A stretch of 48,693 nucleotides of DNA from Candidatus Bipolaricaulota bacterium (GCA_014361055.1 JACIWI010000133.1:1-48693); one strand, 5' to 3'. Shown: positions 26,247 to 34,395, counted from the stretch's first letter. Made by a program: numbers and translations. Notes: a model not told the origin generated them from the letters alone.

Positions 26247-27656
26247 TCAGCCCGGAACCCCCTTGGACTCCTCCACCACCGACCGCTGCCAGCTGCGGCT
26301 GAGGAGGAATCCGAGCGCGATCAGCCCCGCGATCACGTTGGAGAGGGACATCCCCCACCACACCCCGTCCGCCCCAAGCCCAAGCGGGAACCCAAAAAGG
26401 TAGGAAAGCGGGATCCGCAGGACCCACAGCCGCACGACCCCCAGCACCATCGTCGGCACGTTGTGCCCGGAACCCCGGTAGATGGCCATCGCCGCGAAGA
26501 ACGTGCCCAAGAACGGCATGCTCACCGCAAATGCCCCGATGAACCGGGCCCCGAGTTCGATCACGTCCTCCCTCCCCGGGATGAACATCGCCACGGCCGG
26601 GTAGCGGATCAGCCACAACAGCCCAGCCTCCGCGGCGAGGATCACGATCAGCGCCCGTAGTCCCTTGCGCACGAGCTCCTGGGCCCGGTCCATCGCCCCT
26701 GCCCCCAGGGCCTGGCCGACCATCGTCGTGAGCCCGGTGCCGAGCCCCTCGGTGACGATGAACAGGATCCCCAGCACCCGATCGCCAATTCCATACCCGG
26801 CCAGGGCCGCCTCGGCATTGGGGAGCCTCCCGATGACCGCGGTCATGATCACGAACCCGAACGCCATGCTCGACTGGCCGATCGCCGCCGGGACCCCGAT
26901 CCGGAGGCCCTTCACGATCCAGGTCCACCGCGGAAAAAGAGCCGCCGGTTCCAGGCGCAGGTGGCCCTTCCCCCGCGCAAGAAGCACGAGGAACGCGGCC
27001 GTCACCAGCCCTTGCGCGGCCACGGTGGCGTAAGCGGCGCCGAGGATCCCCATCTGCGGCACCGGCCCCCACCCCAGGACGAGCAGGGGATCGAGGGCCA
27101 TGTTGAGGAGGGTTCCGCCCCCGTTCACGAGGAGTGGGGTTAAGGTATCCCCGGTGGCAGCGAGGGCGGAATAGAAGAGCCCGGGCAGGACCATGGTGGG
27201 AAGCCCAAGGAAGATGATCTGGATGTACAGGGACGCCGCGCTCGCCACCGTACCTTCCCCGATGAGGAGGGCGAGGACCCACGGGGACAGGAAGTAGCCG
27301 GCCACCCCCAACACGATCCCGGACACCGCGGAGAGAGAAAGGAGCTGGTTCAGGGCGTAGTTGGCCTCTTTGGGCCGGCCGGCCCCCACGTACTGGGCCA
27401 CGAGCGCGCTTACCGCCGCCCCGCCAAACCCGGATATGGACGAGATGAGAAACCACACGATCGGCCAGGATACCTGGATCCCGGCCACCGCCGCCGCGGA
27501 GGCCTCCGGGGGGAGCCGCCCGATCCAGAACGCGTCTGCCAGGTTGTAGAGGGTGAAGATGAGCGATCCCAGAATGGCCGGGCCGCCGATGCGGGCCATC
27601 GTGGCCAGCGCCGGTCCGGTGAGGATCTCGTCGCGCGAGGGAGTGCGGAACTTCAT
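26247..27656 (-). CDS. MATE-family efflux transporter
   Basis: 12-TM protein starting MKFRTPSRDEILTGPALATMARIGGPAILG, the typical NorM/MATE N-terminus. The start is taken at residue 20 of the listed ORF. Confidence 0.85.
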   Translation of the reverse strand: MKFRTPSRDEILTGPALATMARIGGPAILGSLIFTLYNLADAFWIGRLPPEASAAAVAGIQVSWPIVWFLISSISGFGGAAVSALVAQYVGAGRPKEANYALNQLLSLSAVSGIVLGVAGYFLSPWVLALLIGEGTVASAASLYIQIIFLGLPTMVLPGLFYSALAATGDTLTPLLVNGGGTLLNMALDPLLVLGWGPVPQMGILGAAYATVAAQGLVTAAFLVLLARGKGHLRLEPAALFPRWTWIVKGLRIGVPAAIGQSSMAFGFVIMTAVIGRLPNAEAALAGYGIGDRVLGILFIVTEGLGTGLTTMVGQALGAGAMDRAQELVRKGLRALIVILAAEAGLLWLIRYPAVAMFIPGREDVIELGARFIGAFAVSMPFLGTFFAAMAIYRGSGHNVPTMVLGVVRLWVLRIPLSYLFGFPLGLGADGVWWGMSLSNVIAGLIALGFLLSRSWQRSVVEESKGVPG

Positions 27657-28360
27657 GGCGAAGCGGTAAGTATACCCGAGACCGCGCTCGGTTGGGTTGA
27701 CGGAGGCTCCCATTCGGGGTATACGTCCGGTTCGCTGAGCCTATGGAAGACTCCGAACCCTGTCCTTCTCGCGAACCGCACCCGCCCCTCAGCACGAGCC
27801 GTTGGCCGCCGACCTCCGGCACACAGAACGCCGCGGGGGGCAACGCGGGACCCGAGAGGCCGCAACTCGGCGCCACAGCGCAGAGCGAACGTGTAGCGTC
27901 GCAGCTTGGCTGCGACGGCCTTTCCCCAACCACCGCACCGGGCTTCGAGGAGATCCAGGAACTCAGCCGGTTGCACGATCCTGATACCGCGGTAGCTGCC
28001 CAATGCCAGCAGGTGACGGTCCCCGGTGACGATGTACTCCGCGTCCGTTTCAAGGGCCGCGCTCAGAACGAAGTCGTCGCTGGGATCCTCGTGGATGACG
28101 CGAACTCGGCGGCGCCCCGGTGCGATCACGGCCGCTCTTGCGATCAACTCCACAAGTCTGAAAACCTCATCAGAGTTGAGCTTCTGATACTCGCGGATCC
28201 GAGGACGCTGTAGAACACTCTCCAGTTCATGCAGTAGAACCCGAGAAGTGGCAAGCTCGGCCTTGCCGTCCAGCCATGCCCGCAGCACCCGTCCCGGCGC
28301 CCCCTCCCGAGCGATGGTGGCGCTCACCACCACGTTCGTGTCAGGGACAAAGCGAATCAT
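27653..28360 (-). CDS. PIN-domain ribonuclease, putative type II toxin (PIN_3 family)
   Basis: MIRFVPDTNVVVSA...ESVLQRP...DDFVLSAALETDAEYIVTGDRHL. The PIN core is about 145 aa. The open frame then continues about 90 codons to 27653 through GC-rich low-complexity sequence, so the true stop is uncertain. Confidence 0.65.
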   Translation of the reverse strand: MIRFVPDTNVVVSATIAREGAPGRVLRAWLDGKAELATSRVLLHELESVLQRPRIREYQKLNSDEVFRLVELIARAAVIAPGRRRVRVIHEDPSDDFVLSAALETDAEYIVTGDRHLLALGSYRGIRIVQPAEFLDLLEARCGGWGKAVAAKLRRYTFALRCGAELRPLGSRVAPRGVLCAGGRRPTARAEGRVRFARRTGFGVFHRLSEPDVYPEWEPPSTQPSAVSGILTASP

Positions 28361-28379
28361 GGCCGGCGCCCACGGAGGC

Positions 28380-28649
28380 TTATCGCCGACGGCTGCGGAC
28401 CTCGCCCACGGCCTTCTCAACGTCGGCTTCCACAGCGGCCGGATCTACGCCCTTATTCCGTTCCCACACGGGCTCAAGCAGCTGCGCCAGTTCCGCCTTG
28501 GCCCGATCCACCACGGCCATCGGCCGCAGGACGAGTTGATCGCCGCTGCGGGCGATCTCCAAGTAGTCGCCCTCCCGAAGCCCCATCTCCTCACAGAGTT
28601 CCTTCGGGATGCTGACCTGTCGGCTGCGCGTGATCTTGACCAGCGGCAT
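28380..28649 (-). CDS. AbrB/MazE/SpoVT-family antitoxin
   Basis: MPLVKITRSRQVSIPKELCEEMGLREGDYLEI is a swapped-hairpin DNA-binding domain. It lies immediately upstream of the PIN gene. Confidence 0.75.
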   Translation of the reverse strand: MPLVKITRSRQVSIPKELCEEMGLREGDYLEIARSGDQLVLRPMAVVDRAKAELAQLLEPVWERNKGVDPAAVEADVEKAVGEVRSRRR

Positions 28650-28749
28650 GATCGCCTCCCTTCCTGTCACAGTATGGAAGTATCGAAGTATGGTAGTCCT
28701 TACTCAGCGATTGTCAAGGCGACGTGCGACCACGCGTGCTGGTAGGAAG

Positions 28750-28930
28750 ATGCGGTGCCAGGTTGCGAAGCGGTACTTGGACGGCCGGGGGATCGCCTAC
28801 GCCGGGGTAGACGTGGCGCCGACTACCAGGCGGCGATGGAGACGATGCGCAAGACCGGGCAGCAGGGCGTGCCGGTGATCGGGATCGACGGCGAGTCCGT
28901 GATCGGGTTCGACCGCGCCCGGACCTGCTA
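28750..28930 (+). pseudogene. decayed glutaredoxin-like (NrdH/Grx) gene with a frameshift and a lost N-terminal CxxC cysteine
   Basis: Frame A reads MRCQVAKRYLDGRGIAYAGVDVA. Frame B, about 28821..28930, reads DYQAAMETMRKTGQQGVPVIGIDGESVIGFDRARTC. Together they match the glutaredoxin fold, but the reading frame shifts by one and the first Cys of CxxC is absent. Confidence 0.4.
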
Positions 28931-29078
28931 GAGGCGAGGACGCGCACGGCCGCCCGACCAGTGGATGCAGGGGAGCAGAACGTCGTCAGCGGCCAGGGCG
29001 GCTCAACCCGAAGATAAGTCGCGCGCTCTGGATGTGACAGGTCAACATCTGACCCCGGAGTGCGGAGTGATAGGTCAC

Positions 29079-29594
29079 CTATGGAGTAGGAGCGCCCTCT
29101 TCTCTGGGAGCACGCTCAGGCGGGAACGCCGCCAGGGCCGCTCTGACAGAGTCCAGCAGTCGTTCAACGGACGCAATCCCACCCAACATATACTCCTCGT
29201 CAATCAATGAGGAACTCAGATCGCAGGCTACTGGCCCCCACCTGTTGACGAACTCGTTCTGGTACCGACCCTTGCCCAGGAAGTACTCGTCTGAGTGCTC
29301 GCGAGCATCACGAACTCTCTCGGCCATTTCCGTAGCCTCCAGGAACTCGCGGAGAGCAGGCTGGTCACGTCTTGAGACATGGGGTTCGATTCGACGGAGA
29401 AACCGCCGTGCCATTACCGTAGCTGTCAACGCGTAGTGCTCGAGGAACGGGCGAGATCGGAGAAGATCGGGCTCAGGTGGCCTCTCAGCGGACAGCTTGT
29501 CGCGAAGTTGGAGCAAGGCTGTGAGCATGCGGGATGCCTCCTCCAACCAAATGCGGCCAAAGAACAGACAGGTATTGAAATCAGACGTGTTCAT
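29079..29594 (-). CDS. hypothetical protein co-transcribed with the split restriction-modification genes (contains an R-x4-H motif)
   Basis: 171 aa. ATG overlaps the stop of the upstream restriction-modification C-terminal-half gene as ATGA. Local GC is lower. No family recognised; RRIEPH matches the minimal HEPN Rx4-6H pattern. Confidence 0.45.
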   Translation of the reverse strand: MNTSDFNTCLFFGRIWLEEASRMLTALLQLRDKLSAERPPEPDLLRSRPFLEHYALTATVMARRFLRRIEPHVSRRDQPALREFLEATEMAERVRDAREHSDEYFLGKGRYQNEFVNRWGPVACDLSSSLIDEEYMLGGIASVERLLDSVRAALAAFPPERAPREEGAPTP

Positions 29595-30967
29595 GATGCC
29601 CTGACTTCGTCCACCCGCGTGCGGGACTCATATAGGTGAGTCGCCTGTGTCCGATCACGGCTCTGTCTCACCCCCCACCTCGCGAAGGAATCTTTCCTCC
29701 ACGCCCGGGTAGAGGTCATCGATCTCGGCCTGGATCTCGATGGTCTTGGAGAGAGCGGTGGTGATGCGGCAGTAGGTGCGGATGTCGTCGAGGGTGAGGG
29801 TGCGGTCTTTGCGGTCCTTGAGCCACTTGTGGCACACCTGGTACCCGCCGATCGGGTACTCCCACATTCCGGCGGGACGGGCGCGAAGTACTGGCTCGGA
29901 TTGATGTACACGCGCTCCTGCTTAGCGTCGTAGCGGAGGCCCTTCTTGCCGGAGACGATCACCTTGCCGTCGCCCTCGCCCTGGAACTGGGCGAGCGGCG
30001 GATCGAGCTCGAGCGATCGGAGGAGATGTAGCTCCACCAGCCGTTCCCCCAGCTCGGCCATGTTCTTGAAGAGCTCACGATCGGAGGTGAACGGGATGCG
30101 CGGGAAGTCGAGCCGCAGGAACTCGGCGTACTTCTCGCGGTAGGTCGGGGCGTACAGGACCGCGTAGACGTAGTGGAAGATCTCTCCCGGCGACGGCTCA
30201 TGCCCATACGCCGCGGCGAGAGCCGCGAGAAGTTCGGGGTTCAGGTTCGGCCGCCGCTCAGAGGGGCTGTGTGTTGCGAGGGGGCCGCGCTGTTCTGCCC
30301 CGGGGTAGAGGTAGAGCGGGAAGACGAGGATGCCACCACGGTAGAAGGCGTTGAAGTCCGCGATGTGCTGGGCGCAGTACGCAAGGTTCCAAGTACCTCC
30401 ACCCACCACTTGTCCAGCACGGCCTGTATGCAGGGCAACGTTCTCGCCCGCAAGCATGTGGCGCATGACTTCTTCCCGCCCGAAGTCGATCGCATGCGGA
30501 TGGTAAAAGAGCCAACGGGCATCGAAGGGTCTGTACAGACAGGGCACCAGCTTCTTCTCCCAACATCTGTCTTGCTGGAGCAATCGGCGTTTCTCGGAGA
30601 GTCTCCAGTCGCGATTGTCCGGGAGGGCAAACGTCTCTCGGGCCAGGTTGTCGGAGAGGCTCGGGCTCAGGAACGTGCGGATACGGTTCCTGAGGATTTC
30701 GCGATCGAAGTCGAACACGAAGTGATCACGATGGGTCTTGATGCCGGTGCTGCTAACTGGGAACACATCCATGATCTTGGGAAACCGCTCGTACTGAGCG
30801 AACGCTGCCTCGTCGCGAGGGATGAACAGGTAGAAATCCGGTCCTGGCTGCACGGACTGCCACTTGGTGGTCTTCCAGTCGTGATCCTTGAGCCAGGAGT
30901 ACTTCGCCTCGCGCTGGCCCCACAGGTTGGCGTGGTACACCTTGGCCATTCTCTCCTTGCGCGTCAT
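29591..30967 (-). CDS. C-terminal (target-recognition) half of an MmeI-family type IIL / type ISP-like restriction-modification enzyme
   Basis: Begins MTRKERMAKVYHANLWGQREAKYSWL, the Y-H/A-x-x-LWG segment that in intact homologues follows the MTase domain directly. 458 aa. Start overlaps the MNT stop as ATGA. Confidence 0.65.
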   Translation of the reverse strand: MTRKERMAKVYHANLWGQREAKYSWLKDHDWKTTKWQSVQPGPDFYLFIPRDEAAFAQYERFPKIMDVFPVSSTGIKTHRDHFVFDFDREILRNRIRTFLSPSLSDNLARETFALPDNRDWRLSEKRRLLQQDRCWEKKLVPCLYRPFDARWLFYHPHAIDFGREEVMRHMLAGENVALHTGRAGQVVGGGTWNLAYCAQHIADFNAFYRGGILVFPLYLYPGAEQRGPLATHSPSERRPNLNPELLAALAAAYGHEPSPGEIFHYVYAVLYAPTYREKYAEFLRLDFPRIPFTSDRELFKNMAELGERLVELHLLRSLELDPPLAQFQGEGDGKVIVSGKKGLRYDAKQERVYINPSQYFAPVPPECGSTRSAGTRCATSGSRTAKTAPSPSTTSAPTAASPPLSPRPSRSRPRSMTSTRAWRKDSFARWGVRQSRDRTQATHLYESRTRVDEVRAS

Positions 30968-31281
30968 GCCTCGATCCCGACGGGCTTGACCTCGTCGCCC
31001 ACGAACGTCCCCTCCCCCAGGGAGGCGTACTCCTCGGACGTGTACCCGAGTGCCTGAACCGGCTCCATGATCCTCGCCGCCGCCACTCCCAAGAGCTCAA
31101 GCCGCTCCCGCAGGCCCATGCGTGCGAAGTCCTTGGAGATCACGACCACGTCAATATCGCTCTCCTTGTCGAGGATCCCCTTGGCGCGCGACCCATAGAC
31201 GATCACCTTCTCCGGCTCGATCCCCAGCCGGCGCAGCTCCTCCTTGTATCGCCTCACGGCTTCAACTGTCTCGCGATCCAT
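30964..31281 (-). CDS. minimal nucleotidyltransferase (MNT) of a HEPN/MNT toxin-antitoxin pair
   Basis: GSRAKGILDKESDIDVVVI is the GS...DxD Pol-beta-type nucleotidyltransferase signature. 105 aa. Confidence 0.8.
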   Translation of the reverse strand: MDRETVEAVRRYKEELRRLGIEPEKVIVYGSRAKGILDKESDIDVVVISKDFARMGLRERLELLGVAAARIMEPVQALGYTSEEYASLGEGTFVGDEVKPVGIEA

Positions 31282-31640
31282 TCCACCGCCTCCTCTGCCT
31301 GCCGCAGGTACGCCTCGGCCACCTCCCGGGGGTAGGCACGCACGACCTCTTCGAGGTCCGCCGGGTAGCGGGTGGCTGTGCTGGACCCAGCAAGCTTCCC
31401 GAGGAAGTCCCGCAGCTCCGATGGGGGGTCGAGCCTCGCTCGCTTGAGGAGGACGATCAGGTCGTGGATCCGCGGCGGAGTCCTTCCCGTCTGCTCCTGA
31501 ACCCTGGCCTTGAGCGCCTTCTCCACCGCGAGGTGGGCGAAGAAGACCGTGTACACGAACCGGCCTGCCGCCAGCATGTCCCGCGCGGCAGCGAGGTCGT
31601 AGCGCGCGGAGTTCAGCCAGTTCTCAACCCTTGCGTCCAT
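31254..31640 (-). CDS. HEPN-domain protein of a HEPN/MNT pair
   Basis: 128 aa all-helical protein with GRTPPRIHDL (the R-x5-H HEPN motif). It overlaps the MNT gene by 28 nt and the upstream MTase stop by 17 nt. Confidence 0.75.
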   Translation of the reverse strand: MDARVENWLNSARYDLAAARDMLAAGRFVYTVFFAHLAVEKALKARVQEQTGRTPPRIHDLIVLLKRARLDPPSELRDFLGKLAGSSTATRYPADLEEVVRAYPREVAEAYLRQAEEAVEWIARQLKP

Positions 31641-33492
31641 CTCCGTACCTTATGAAGAAAGCGATCGCCACGCCCTGGCGGATGTCGAACACGTTCTCGT
31701 CTGGGGAGCCGTCGGGGCAGATCTCCTTCTTGAGGGAGTTCCCGTGGAGGTCGAGCACGTAGATCTCGTCGAACGTGGTCATCAGGTGCTGGCGCATCCC
31801 GCGGAAGGTTGGGTTGTCGAGGTAGCCGTGGTTCGTGATCATCCCCACCACGCCCTGGCCGGCCTGGGCAATCTTCCACTCCGCGAACCGCAGGAATTTC
31901 ACGTAGTCGTCCTGGAGCCACTTAGGGTTCTTCTCCCCCAACGGCTTTCCATCTACCTGCTTGTAGTCTTCAATGAGCCCGCGGATCCACGGTCCCTTGT
32001 TGGCGGAGTGGCCGAAGTACGGGGGGTTCCCGAGGATCACGAGGATCGGCACGTCGCGCTTGACCTCGCCGGCTTGGTGGGATTCGTGGGCGAGGGACGC
32101 AAACCCCGGAAGCTGACTCTCGGCAAGCTCCTCCATCTCCAGGGTGTTCGTGAGGTAAAGCTTGAACCTGTCATCGGGGCCGAGGGTGTACCCCAACTCC
32201 TCGAGGAAGAACCCCATCTTGAGGTGCCCCACGGCGTAGGGCGCCATCATGAGCTCGAACGCATAGAAGTTCTTCAGGATGTGATCGCGGATGAACTCCT
32301 TGCGCCCCGCCTCTCCGTACTTGGAGACGAACTCCTCCACCGCGACCTGGGCCGCTCTCGCGACGAACGTCATCGTCCCCGCCGCCGGGTCGAGGAGGGT
32401 CACGCCGGGGGAGGCGAGGCCGTCAGGTCTCCCGAATCTCTGCTGGAGGATCTGGTGAAGGGAGCGGACGATGTAGGACACCACCGGCTCGGGGGTGTAG
32501 TACACGCCCCGGCGCTCGCGCTCCTCGGGGTCGTACTGGGCGAGGAACGTCTCGTAGAAGTGGACGATCGGGTCGGCCCCTTTGCCCTCGTGGAAGAACT
32601 GGTGAAGGATCCCCTTCACATCGGCCACGGCCAGGACCTCGGCCAGGTCGTCGACGATCCACTCCAGAGGCTTGGGGAGATCCCCAAGCGAGATGAAGCG
32701 GAACACGTCGCGGAGGATGCCGATGGTGTGGGGAATGGAGTCGAACGCAGCGCGACGGGTGAAGGTCTCTCCGGCCCGCACGCGGGCCGCAAACAGGCCG
32801 TAGGTGAGGGTTTGGGCGTAAAGGTCGGCGAAGTCCTCCATGGTCAGCCCGGCGATGAGGTGTTTCCGGAACGCCTCGTAGAAACCCAGGAGGTGGCCTC
32901 CCCCTCGGGTCTGCTCCTGGGCAAGCTCCTCGGCCACCACCTGGTCGCGGAGGAACCGGGTGCGCACGGCCAGGGCCACCGCCAGCTCTTCGGCGTTGTA
33001 CGCGCGGGGGAGGGAGAAGGCAAAGAACTGCTGAAGAAGCGTCTGCAGCTCGTCGGCCTGTTCGATCGGGGGCCTCGCGCCGAGCTTGGTGGCGACGAAC
33101 GGCCGGGCGAGGCGGGCGGCGGCCACGAGCGCTCCGTCGCGGTAGAGGCGGAACTCGAAGAAGTTGGTGAGGATGAGGTTCGGGAACGTTCTTCGGTAAC
33201 GCTGAAGCTGCTCGCTTTCCGCAATTGGCTCGAGGTTCTCCACCGTCGGCGCCTTGGCTTCGATGTAACCGATGATGTGCTGCTGGCCGTCCCATACCCG
33301 GAAGTCGGGGTTCCCGGCCTCGGTGGATTTCGGGAGCGTCGTGACGTGGACGGCCTCGAGCTTCGTTGCTTGGGCCCACGCGGAAACAAGGTCGGCCAGG
33401 GGCGCGTAGAAGCTCTCCTCGCGCGCATCGCCCTGGGCGGCGACTGCGGTGAGCCGAGCGAGGTAGTCGCGGAAGAGCGCCTTCTCAGCCAT
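31624..33492 (-). CDS. N-terminal half of an MmeI-family type IIL restriction-modification enzyme: PD-(D/E)xK nuclease domain plus gamma-class N6-adenine methyltransferase domain
   Basis: N-terminus GNPDFRVWDGQQHIIGYIEAK and TFPNLILTNFFEFRLY parallel the MmeI nuclease domain (D...E-x-K). MTase motif I is LLDPAAGTMTF and motif IV is ILGNPPYFG. The ORF ends about 140 aa after NPPY, and the target-recognition domain is missing from this polypeptide. Confidence 0.8.
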   Translation of the reverse strand: MAEKALFRDYLARLTAVAAQGDAREESFYAPLADLVSAWAQATKLEAVHVTTLPKSTEAGNPDFRVWDGQQHIIGYIEAKAPTVENLEPIAESEQLQRYRRTFPNLILTNFFEFRLYRDGALVAAARLARPFVATKLGARPPIEQADELQTLLQQFFAFSLPRAYNAEELAVALAVRTRFLRDQVVAEELAQEQTRGGGHLLGFYEAFRKHLIAGLTMEDFADLYAQTLTYGLFAARVRAGETFTRRAAFDSIPHTIGILRDVFRFISLGDLPKPLEWIVDDLAEVLAVADVKGILHQFFHEGKGADPIVHFYETFLAQYDPEERERRGVYYTPEPVVSYIVRSLHQILQQRFGRPDGLASPGVTLLDPAAGTMTFVARAAQVAVEEFVSKYGEAGRKEFIRDHILKNFYAFELMMAPYAVGHLKMGFFLEELGYTLGPDDRFKLYLTNTLEMEELAESQLPGFASLAHESHQAGEVKRDVPILVILGNPPYFGHSANKGPWIRGLIEDYKQVDGKPLGEKNPKWLQDDYVKFLRFAEWKIAQAGQGVVGMITNHGYLDNPTFRGMRQHLMTTFDEIYVLDLHGNSLKKEICPDGSPDENVFDIRQGVAIAFFIRYGDGRKG

Positions 33493-33540
33493 GCGCCTGA
33501 CTTATACCACCATGCGCCTGACTTATACCACAAGGATCAC
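33493..33540. repeat. 21-bp perfect tandem duplication (CATGCGCCTGACTTATACCAC x2) at the start codon and -10 region of the MTase-nuclease gene
   Basis: The plus strand at about 33488..33540 carries the unit twice. On the minus strand it reads GTGGTATAAGTCAGGCGCATG twice, and the second ATG is the gene start. An inverted partial copy AAGTCAGGC lies at about 33627..33635. Confidence 0.6.
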
Positions 33541-33725
33541 CCGTCAGGCCAGCGATCTAGGGAGTCGGGGCTTGTTCCGTGCATGTCGCCTCCCGACGCT
33601 GGGTACAGAGGGATGAGAACCCGGCAAGTCAGGCATCTCGGCTCTATGGAGATGACCAAACCCGCGAGTCGTGCGCTCGCAACATACGGGCGCCAGTTGC
33701 CCCTCTCTACGCGAAGATAACCGCC

Positions 33726-33989
33726 ATGCGCATCGTGGGGATGAAGGAACTGAGGGATCACGCGACGAAGCTTCTTCGTGGCCGTGACCCGGTGCTCGTC
33801 ATGCGCCGGGACAAGGTCGCGGGCGTGTTCCTCCCCCTGGACGGAGACGACCTCGCGCTTGAGCTCCGCCGCGAGGTCCAGCTCGGACTGGCGGCCAAGA
33901 TCCGGGAGAGCCTGACGAGCAAGGGGGTCTCGGAACAGGACGTCCTCGATGACTTCCAAGTTTCCCGCAAAGCTCGTCGTCGACGCTAA
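33726..33989 (+). CDS. Phd/YefM-type antitoxin (VapB-like)
   Basis: MRIVGMKELRDHATKLLRGRDPVLVMRRDKVAGVFLPLDGDD. The ATG is residue 50 of the listed ORF. It overlaps the downstream PIN gene. Confidence 0.65.
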   Translation: MRIVGMKELRDHATKLLRGRDPVLVMRRDKVAGVFLPLDGDDLALELRREVQLGLAAKIRESLTSKGVSEQDVLDDFQVSRKARRRR

Positions 33990-34395
33990 CGTCATCCTCT
34001 CCGCCGTCGTCGGAGGCAAGGCATCCGACCTCGTATGGGCCGTGCCCTCGCAGCTCGTAACCGCTGCGTACGCCCTTCAGGAGGTCATGCAGTACTCACT
34101 GACCCTCGCCGAGAAGGCGGACGTCCCCCTGGAGGTCGCCCTGGGTGCACTGCGCCTGCTCCCGATCACCGCCGTTCGCCGCAGCTTCTACGGAGCGAGA
34201 ATGGCCCAAGTCCGGGATCTGATCGGGAGCCGTGACCCAGACGACGTGGACCTCCTCGCGCTCGCCCTGAAGCTCGAGTCCCCGATCTGGACGAACGACT
34301 GCGACTTCCAGGGCCTCGGGGTTGTGATCTACACAACGGCCCAGCTGGCATCCATGTCGGATAGACCCACTCAGTCGGAGCAGGGGGTTGGGTAG
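33949..34395 (+). CDS. PIN-domain toxin VapC
   Basis: LVVDANVILSAVVGG...DVDLLALALKLESPIWTNDCDF, with PIN acidic residues. Confidence 0.8.
   Translation: MTSKFPAKLVVDANVILSAVVGGKASDLVWAVPSQLVTAAYALQEVMQYSLTLAEKADVPLEVALGALRLLPITAVRRSFYGARMAQVRDLIGSRDPDDVDLLALALKLESPIWTNDCDFQGLGVVIYTTAQLASMSDRPTQSEQGVG

Follow-up and report, generated by a model that had tools for sequence, protein, structure and literature searches.

A HEPN-MNT gene pair between the halves of a predicted DrdV-like type IIL restriction-modification enzyme in Bipolaricaulota

How does a large single-chain restriction enzyme come to be carried as two genes, with a pair resembling a toxin-antitoxin (TA) cassette in the gap, and can the enzyme survive the split? 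The question is raised by positions 29,079 to 33,540 of a 48,693-nucleotide (nt) stretch of DNA from a Candidatus Bipolaricaulota bacterium (GCA_014361055.1 JACIWI010000133.1:1-48693), which we call the window. A reading of the sequence alone, the original prediction, had described here a restriction-modification (R-M) enzyme interrupted by genes for a HEPN protein and a minimal nucleotidyltransferase (MNT). The explanation that we favor after comparing the locus with its relatives, and consider fairly probable, is that a selfish HEPN-MNT hitch-hiker turned a one-chain DrdV-like type IIL enzyme into a two-subunit operon, in which the halves would re-associate and translation would be relayed from gene to gene.

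Two parts of one enzyme

The four open reading frames (ORFs) that had been predicted were borne out by ORF calling, in coordinates and in strand:

31624-33492, minus strand: N-half, 622 amino acids (aa), Pfam N6_Mtase
31254-31640, minus strand: HEPN protein, 128 aa, Pfam HEPN PF05168 ("HEPN-T" type), E=3e-22
30964-31281, minus strand: MNT minimal nucleotidyltransferase, 105 aa, Pfam NTP_transf_2, E=8e-10
29591-30967, minus strand: the "458-aa ORF" (C-half), 458 aa as read, Pfam Type_ISP_C, E=3e-73

They lie head to tail in the order N-half, HEPN, MNT, C-half, and the ORF coordinates give overlaps of 17 nt (N-half/HEPN), 28 nt (HEPN/MNT), and 4 nt (ATGA; MNT/C-half), as had been predicted.

The N-half has the domain order PD-ExK nuclease, helical connector, and gamma-class N6-adenine methyltransferase (MTase) core. 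Each motif previously read in it is present: the nuclease motif P62-D63...E78-x-K80 (aa 62-80, nt 33253-33309), MTase motif I LLDPAAGTMTF (aa 366-376, nt 32365-32397), and NPPY (aa 489-492, nt 32017-32028). Aligning 68 full-length homologues shows no variation in the columns of any of the three. The N6_Mtase match scores 29.3 bits against a cut-off of 20.4, and this part aligns to the MTase of DrdV; the last strand of the N-half is GVAIAFFIRY, and the ORF ends just after it. The C-half carries the strand KVYHANLWG (nt 30917-30943), which completes the hairpin, followed by the Type_ISP_C target-recognition domain (TRD), which scores 247.5 bits in the window.

The proposal that the two ORFs are contiguous parts of one protein held up in profile and homology searches, in which single-chain homologues of ∼1050 aa were covered end to end. 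The PADLOC profile REase_MTase_IIG (1096 positions) was tiled by the N-half (positions 3-495+), the C-half (654-1019), and an out-of-frame ORF of 70 aa (1020-1064), and the halves tiled a second PADLOC profile over positions 4-610 and 616-915. In a set made up of the window N-half and its 120 best homologues, single chains of at least 1000 aa with both PF02384 and PF18135 accounted for 90 of 121. One single-chain homologue, P0002 (1057 aa), is 90% identical, and its linker IKRSAGARPRSPSRVSHADLWG aligns across the break: where P0002 reads GVAIVFLIKRSAGARPRSPSRVSHADLWG, the window has the N-half end GVAIAFFIRYGDGRKG, followed by a stop codon, and the C-half start MTRKERMAKVYHANLWG. The N-half and the repaired C-half (see below) add up to 622 + 437 = 1059 aa, compared with 1057 to 1058 aa for the homologues. 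Among the 120 best C-half homologue clusters, about 40 consist of proteins that stand alone, at 425 to 445 aa, and fall into a few N-terminal types. By these sequence comparisons, we conclude that the N-half and the C-half are two parts of one DrdV-like type IIL R-M enzyme.

The enzyme had been assigned to the MmeI family of type IIL enzymes. Type IIL stands, and the window enzyme shares its class and domain order with MmeI, the type IIL prototype; family membership by sequence does not: at E≤0.01, the Pfam models of the MmeI series gave no match, and the PDB matches include no MmeI chain. In the PDB search, the closest solved relative was DrdV (PDB 7LO5/7LVV; E=1e-51 over P0002 residues 311-1013), followed by LlaBIII and LlaGI. 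DrdV has the same order of nuclease, helical connector, MTase, and TRD, and its NPPY motif and linker hairpin align; it differs in being one chain of 1029 aa, of modest identity, whereas the window chain is cut at a point that aligns to DrdV residues ∼577-590 and has two genes in the gap. LlaGI and LlaBIII, which are of type ISP, are homologous in MTase and TRD (E=1e-41 and 1e-34) and share Pfam Type_ISP_C, but they have an Mrr nuclease and a RecA-like ATPase motor, and no such domain is found in the window enzyme. Type ISP membership was considered and rejected: there is no helicase or ATPase Pfam match, the length is ∼1059 aa versus 1406 to 1578 aa for type ISP enzymes, and the N-half matches only positions 845-1150 of a 1591-position PADLOC type ISP-like profile, whose match is confined to the MTase/TRD part of the profile. 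In the window, the enzyme is not a single polypeptide, as it occupies two ORFs with two other genes between them. By analogy with MmeI, one-strand N6-methyladenine modification and cleavage at a fixed distance would be expected.

The C-half needs repair before it can be compared. The 458-aa ORF does carry the KVYHANLWG segment and does continue into the recognition region, as had been read, but it is not a single gene product; it is a chimera made by a 1-nt deletion, and its last ∼90 residues are read-through out of frame:

29868-30967, minus strand: first 367 codons of the C-half, Type_ISP_C profile positions 1-294 (aa 67-367)
29867/29868, minus strand: 1-nt deletion; the G is present in the sibling contig L008, and the site lies outside any homopolymer run
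29655-29867, minus strand, other frame: last 70 codons of the C-half, Type_ISP_C profile positions 295-339, with the family-invariant ...W-x5-GGYQV-x2-KWLKDR...
29079-29594, minus strand: 171-aa ORF, from a conserved family that is small (40 representatives at E≤1e-3) and whose proteins typically have 145 to 210 aa

L008, a Logan contig, is syntenic with the window and 98.7% identical over 7.3 kb. Its extra G at 29867/29868 restores the frame, giving PPEVWEYPIGGYQVCHKWLKDR, and the repaired C-half has 437 aa and its true stop at 29655. As the missing base lies outside any homopolymer, it is plausible that the mutation is real. With the deletion, the recognition half loses its conserved final 70 residues, and the window enzyme is therefore probably inactive now; HEPN and MNT are intact. 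In L008 itself, the gene has suffered another lesion, independent of the first: an insertion sequence (IS) with an rve/HTH_21 transposase (L008 7220-8218, at about window position 29715) cuts the C-half ∼20 codons before its stop and takes the place of the 171-aa ORF region.

A further ATGA overlap had been claimed between the recognition half and the 171-aa ORF, which would have made a transcription unit of five genes. This overlap is an artefact of the frameshift, since it exists only in the shifted frame. The 171-aa ORF has no Pfam, NCBIfam, or PADLOC match and is not linked to R-M loci elsewhere; because it is absent from all related loci of the same type, we rejected it as part of the system, and the five-gene unit falls with it. 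Other loci have other neighbors at this end. P0002 is followed by a 344-aa ORF (L007 5648-6682) that has a 4-nt overlap with the P0002 stop and weak MauJ similarity, and the L001 locus is followed by a 282-aa ORF (L001 9826-10674) unrelated to it. The partners downstream of the enzyme family vary from locus to locus.

The window and L008 also differ in a mosaic patch of ∼100 nt directly after NPPY (window 31912-32016, minus strand; N-half aa 493-527). Of the 18 gap positions between the two otherwise 98.7%-identical contigs, 17 fall in this patch, as do ∼30 of the 78 mismatches. Homologues carry three alternative versions of this post-NPPY segment. According to the DrdV authors, an MTase loop around K486/K488 makes base-specific contacts; because this is the aligned DrdV loop, a swap of the segment may change specificity.

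The break and the genes within it

The break had been placed at the boundary between MTase and target recognition. It maps instead inside the MTase domain, which the DrdV authors set at residues 295-635, with the TRD at 636-1029. In an AlphaFold model of unsplit P0002 (predicted local distance difference test score [pLDDT] 77), the break corresponds to the loop 616-626 between strands 608-615 and 627-632. The cut thus lies in a predicted beta-hairpin loop, ∼50 residues upstream of the recognition domain, with the second strand on the C-half. We take this hairpin to be the last strand pair of the class I MTase sheet. The junctions are tight: the last 6 codons of the N-half are the 5′ end of HEPN in another frame, its tail YGDGRKG (then stop) is the HEPN ribosome-binding site and start region in another frame, and the C-half start sits on the MNT stop codon (ATGA).

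The HEPN and MNT genes claimed between the halves are present in the gap. The predicted HEPN motif R-x5-H is found in the window (R53-x5-H59, nt 31464-31484) and is conserved only in part: the His is invariant, and the Arg is replaced by Lys in most orthologues (L001, L006, L009, L010, and L022). The MNT motif G30-S31...D42-I-D44 (nt 31150-31194) fits GSx9-13DxD, and GS...DxD is invariant in all orthologues, including those of loci that lack HEPN. Presumably, HEPN is the toxin and MNT the antitoxin. The structures nearest to HEPN are 1WOL, 1UFB, and 1O3U. Like the type VII TA system HepT-MntA, the pair combines a minimal HEPN protein with a minimal nucleotidyltransferase (GSx10DxD); unlike it, the window HEPN is PF05168 and not DUF86/HepT, the order is HEPN and then MNT, the catalytic Arg is not conserved, and the NCBIfam MntA_antitoxin score is 26.2 bits against a cut-off of 60. 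Membership in the curated MntA/HepT (DUF86) families was rejected on the MntA score and the PF05168 assignment. Assignment as a PrrC-type anticodon nuclease that guards an R-M system was likewise dropped, HEPN being a single domain of 128 aa with no ABC-ATPase and the host system being type IIL.

Recurrence of the split and other contents of the loop

The same split occurs in at least eight Bipolaricaulota lineages with differing gene neighborhoods. A search for HEPN/MNT between R-M halves elsewhere, as the original prediction had suggested, found the pair in L001-5, L006, L008, L017, and L022, and the hairpin loop holds other genes at further loci:

L001-5 (five assemblies): HEPN and MNT in the gap; C-half frameshifted
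L006: HEPN and MNT in the gap; C-half intact, 431 aa
L017: HEPN and MNT in the gap; C-half intact, 433 aa
L008: HEPN and MNT in the gap; C-half truncated by an IS
L022: divergent HEPN-MNT (45-51% identical) in the gap, behind a decayed second cassette; C-half intact, 432 aa
L022 4900-6004: the stacked cassettes, namely, a toxin-like ORF tail and a truncated, antitoxin-like Zn-ribbon gene (69% identical to the L020 gene), then the intact HEPN-MNT
L014, L015: MNT only in the gap, HEPN internally deleted to a 20-codon remnant; C-half intact
L016: 40-codon ORF in the gap, left after deletion of HEPN and most of MNT, with the HEPN start joined in frame to the final 28 codons of MNT; first 105 codons of the C-half on the contig
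L019: 192-aa protein in the same loop, with weak 23S_rRNA_IVP similarity below the Pfam cut-off
L020, L021: 81-aa Zn-ribbon protein in the same loop, with faint MqsA-antitoxin similarity
L018: no insert; the halves overlap by 41 nt in different frames

The ATGA junction between MNT and the C-half is kept in all eight HEPN/MNT-type loci, and in L014 and L015 the stop of the HEPN remnant overlaps the MNT start. Scans of sequence collections based on HEPN returned one metagenome locus and four genome loci, numbers that permit no census. Among the top 40 tblastn matches on plasmids, there were many single-chain relatives and no split of the insert type; one two-piece match is cut elsewhere and has no insert.

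Could the architecture be an assembly artefact or a chimera? The single-base frameshift in the window might raise that suspicion, but the same architecture is found in assemblies that are independent of one another (JGI, ENA, NCBI, and Logan) and stem from different samples, and the probability of such an error is practically nil.

Because several different inserts occupy it (L019, L020/L021, and L022), the hairpin loop is a recurrent site for small genes. This invites an account in which the order of events is reversed: a linker frameshift, as in L018, would first have produced a two-gene form, and the gap would then have served as a neutral landing site for TA cassettes. L018, whose overlapping halves hold no insert, fits such a beginning, as do the four kinds of content found at the loop (HEPN-MNT, the MqsA-like Zn-ribbon protein, the 23S_rRNA_IVP-like protein, and the two stacked cassettes of L022). 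The HEPN/MNT-type loci, however, have no spare intergenic DNA, since the N-half ends in the HEPN start and the C-half begins on the MNT stop, and the L018 frameshift may be a sequencing error. We think the reversed order quite improbable; it differs from the best explanation in history alone and not in present mechanism.

How the enzyme and the cassette may have come together

According to the hitch-hiker explanation, a cassette that was essentially its two ORFs would have inserted in the loop of the last MTase beta-hairpin. Ribosomes would then be handed along an unbroken chain of overlapping ORFs, from N-half through HEPN and MNT to C-half, so that the halves stay co-expressed, and the halves would re-associate non-covalently, the C-half giving the strand that the N-half lacks, in a manner similar to that of the R-M and S subunits of type IIB and type I systems. 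The cassette would be a selfish occupant of a permissive, expressed loop and not an obligate partner of the enzyme, which after the insertion would rely on the ORF relay.

Two observations bear on the independence of the cassette. HEPN was lost in three lineages (L014, L015, and L016), in which the split enzyme persists; HEPN is thus dispensable, and the ORF chain is retained. Free-standing HEPN-MNT pairs were also found, in L009 and L010, between elongation factor G (EF-G)-like and prolyl-tRNA synthetase (ProRS) genes; these pairs are 84%/80% identical to the HEPN-MNT of the window, and the similarity stops essentially at the start and stop codons. At the cassette borders, a search for flanking repeats or target-site duplications found only short repeats at chance level. 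The original prediction had offered two possible functions, an addiction cassette and a composite R-M/abortive-infection system. With HEPN deleted in three lineages and a close relative free-standing, comparison of the loci tends to favor a dispensable hitch-hiker. That MNT or a mini-ORF was kept after HEPN loss may be because the enzyme came to depend on the ORF relay.

In a tree of N-halves, split alleles are interspersed with full-length ones. Over the 80 residues adjoining the cassette, the nearest neighbor of a split allele was also split in 12 of 14 cases; for distal segments, this held in 6 of 14. The sequence pattern suggests that the alleles are mosaic and spread by recombination, a weak signal given that the cassette-adjoining segment is highly conserved.

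Selection speaks for our explanation: between split loci, dN is well below dS in all four genes, with dN/dS (Nei-Gojobori) at 0.05 to 0.25 for N-half, HEPN, MNT, and C-half, and for MNT in the HEPN-less pair L014/L015, it is 0.145 at a dS of 0.67. Several points weigh against the explanation. The dN/dS values are rough, as dS is saturated in most pairs. Because the alleles are mosaic, part of the divergence may have accrued while the segment was in an unsplit gene, before the split. The strand pairing of the hairpin was taken from the DSSP string (pLDDT ∼76-79) and not from coordinates. The C-half is damaged in three of the eight HEPN/MNT-type lineages (the frameshift in the window, the IS in L008, and the frameshift in L001-5), and the split form may on that account be prone to decay. 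The relay could have been retained by chance, the deletions being only two independent ones. MNT was kept without HEPN, catalytic residues included, which hints at a role beyond that of a leader ORF. Finally, it is from sequence that we infer the association of the halves and the activity of split enzymes.

Such damage could be taken further, as plain disruption: the insertion would have killed the enzyme, leaving the halves as decaying pseudogenes and only the TA pair functional. R-M genes are often inactivated, and the window frameshift, the L008 truncation, and the frameshift in the five L001-5 assemblies all fit. We nevertheless regard plain disruption as very improbable. Both halves are full-length in L006, L017, L014, L015, L019, L020, and L022, with the C-terminal motif and the full C-half; N-halves down to ∼70% identity have intact ORFs and invariant catalytic motifs; dN/dS is far under 1 for both halves; and in some lineages it is the cassette, not the enzyme, that decayed.

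On the other hand, the embedding might be adaptive. In a two-layer defence like that of PrrC, a HEPN RNase would be restrained by MNT, by the assembled R-M enzyme, or by both and would be freed when a phage blocks the enzyme or host translation. At least 16 HEPN clades, including PF05168 "HEPN-T," have been tied to R-M operons, and this model has been proposed for them (PMC3710099; PMC3506569). At our loci, the cassette is co-oriented with both halves and overlaps them, HEPN is under purifying selection where present, and a second HEPN-MNT pair, only 45 to 51% identical, occupies the same slot in L022. The persistence of the split enzyme without HEPN in L014, L015, and L016 and the free-standing state of the nearest cassette relatives weaken the idea of a guard; moreover, most orthologues have Lys in place of the catalytic Arg of Rx4-6H, a sensor domain like the ATPase of PrrC is absent, and the same slot holds unrelated small genes at other loci. 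We regard a PrrC-like guard as unlikely.

A related idea is that the loop is a dedicated "slot" for small TA genes, coupling toxin control to R-M synthesis or assembly and making the recognition subunit exchangeable. The genes concerned would be HEPN-MNT, a Zn-ribbon antitoxin, and 23S-IVP-like four-helix proteins. We hold this to be distinctly unlikely. If it were true, single-chain R-M enzymes would have a guard or abortive-infection layer, and a type IIL enzyme would be on its way to a modular architecture resembling that of type I.

Surroundings, known systems, and meaning

The surroundings of the locus matched their earlier description in part. GC content is 0.60 to 0.65 at the locus versus 0.68 to 0.71 in the immediate flanks, the predicted drop, yet the window at 37 to 48 kb is just as low. 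Of the gene pairs said to bracket the island, PIN_3 with a MazE/AbrB-type antitoxin was recovered as such; the other has the expected PIN_2 gene, but its partner ORF has no Pfam match:

27653-28670, minus strand: PIN_3 and MazE/AbrB-type antitoxin pair (Pfam)
33579-34395, plus strand: PIN_2 (Pfam) with an upstream partner ORF; the pair is syntenic in L008
36822-37159, minus strand: RNase P RNA, bacterial class A, 242 bits, full length

At window 28609-28931 (plus strand), two ORFs that overlap in different frames looked by eye like a frameshifted glutaredoxin-like gene; this candidate was dropped, as neither has a Pfam match. A promoter and terminator scan of 28.6 to 34 kb, a kind of scan that is uninformative for the host phylum, gave no terminators and a single promoter-like site, which lies outside the unit.

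The family extends to Borrelia burgdorferi, whose lp56 homologue, which we take to be BBQ67, is a single chain of 1086 aa annotated as a "type ISP restriction/modification enzyme." The lp56/lp25 enzymes (BBQ67/BBE02) are members by tblastn, with 33% identity across 98% of the query, and PGAP proteins of that name, those of Borrelia included, are single-chain and have no embedded genes. The Borrelia enzymes are barriers to transformation (PMC4466376). Separate catalytic and recognition polypeptides that assemble are described for enzymes of type IIB (BcgI and BsaXI) and type I in which the S subunit is separate (PMC11997821); the window break differs from theirs in being derived from a fused ancestor, in lying inside the MTase fold and not between domains, and in having TA genes in the gap. 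EcoprrI-PrrC and other R-M-embedded HEPN genes likewise place HEPN inside an R-M transcription unit (PMC3710099; PMC12707154), but the PrrC gene is flanked by separate hsd genes and its product has an ABC-ATPase sensor, whereas here a minimal HEPN and an MNT interrupt a gene that is otherwise a single ORF. Both R-M operons that contain HEPN genes and R-M enzymes whose recognition subunit is separate are already known. Our literature searches found no account of a type IIL ORF interrupted by TA cassettes within the MTase fold, nor of such a decay series, although a search of this kind does not prove absence.

These loci offer a natural, repeated case of a large single-chain R-M enzyme that is split inside its catalytic fold and apparently survives. 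The loop at the break is a candidate permissive position at which type IIL enzymes might be engineered to be split or specificity-swappable. For annotation, a metagenomic "N-6 DNA methylase" of ∼620 aa and a "type ISP restriction/modification enzyme" of ∼430 aa should be taken together, as the halves of a single system. The series from full cassette to MNT only to mini-ORF suggests a ratchet, in which a selfish insert, once its toxin has been lost, would be structurally indispensable for relaying translation.

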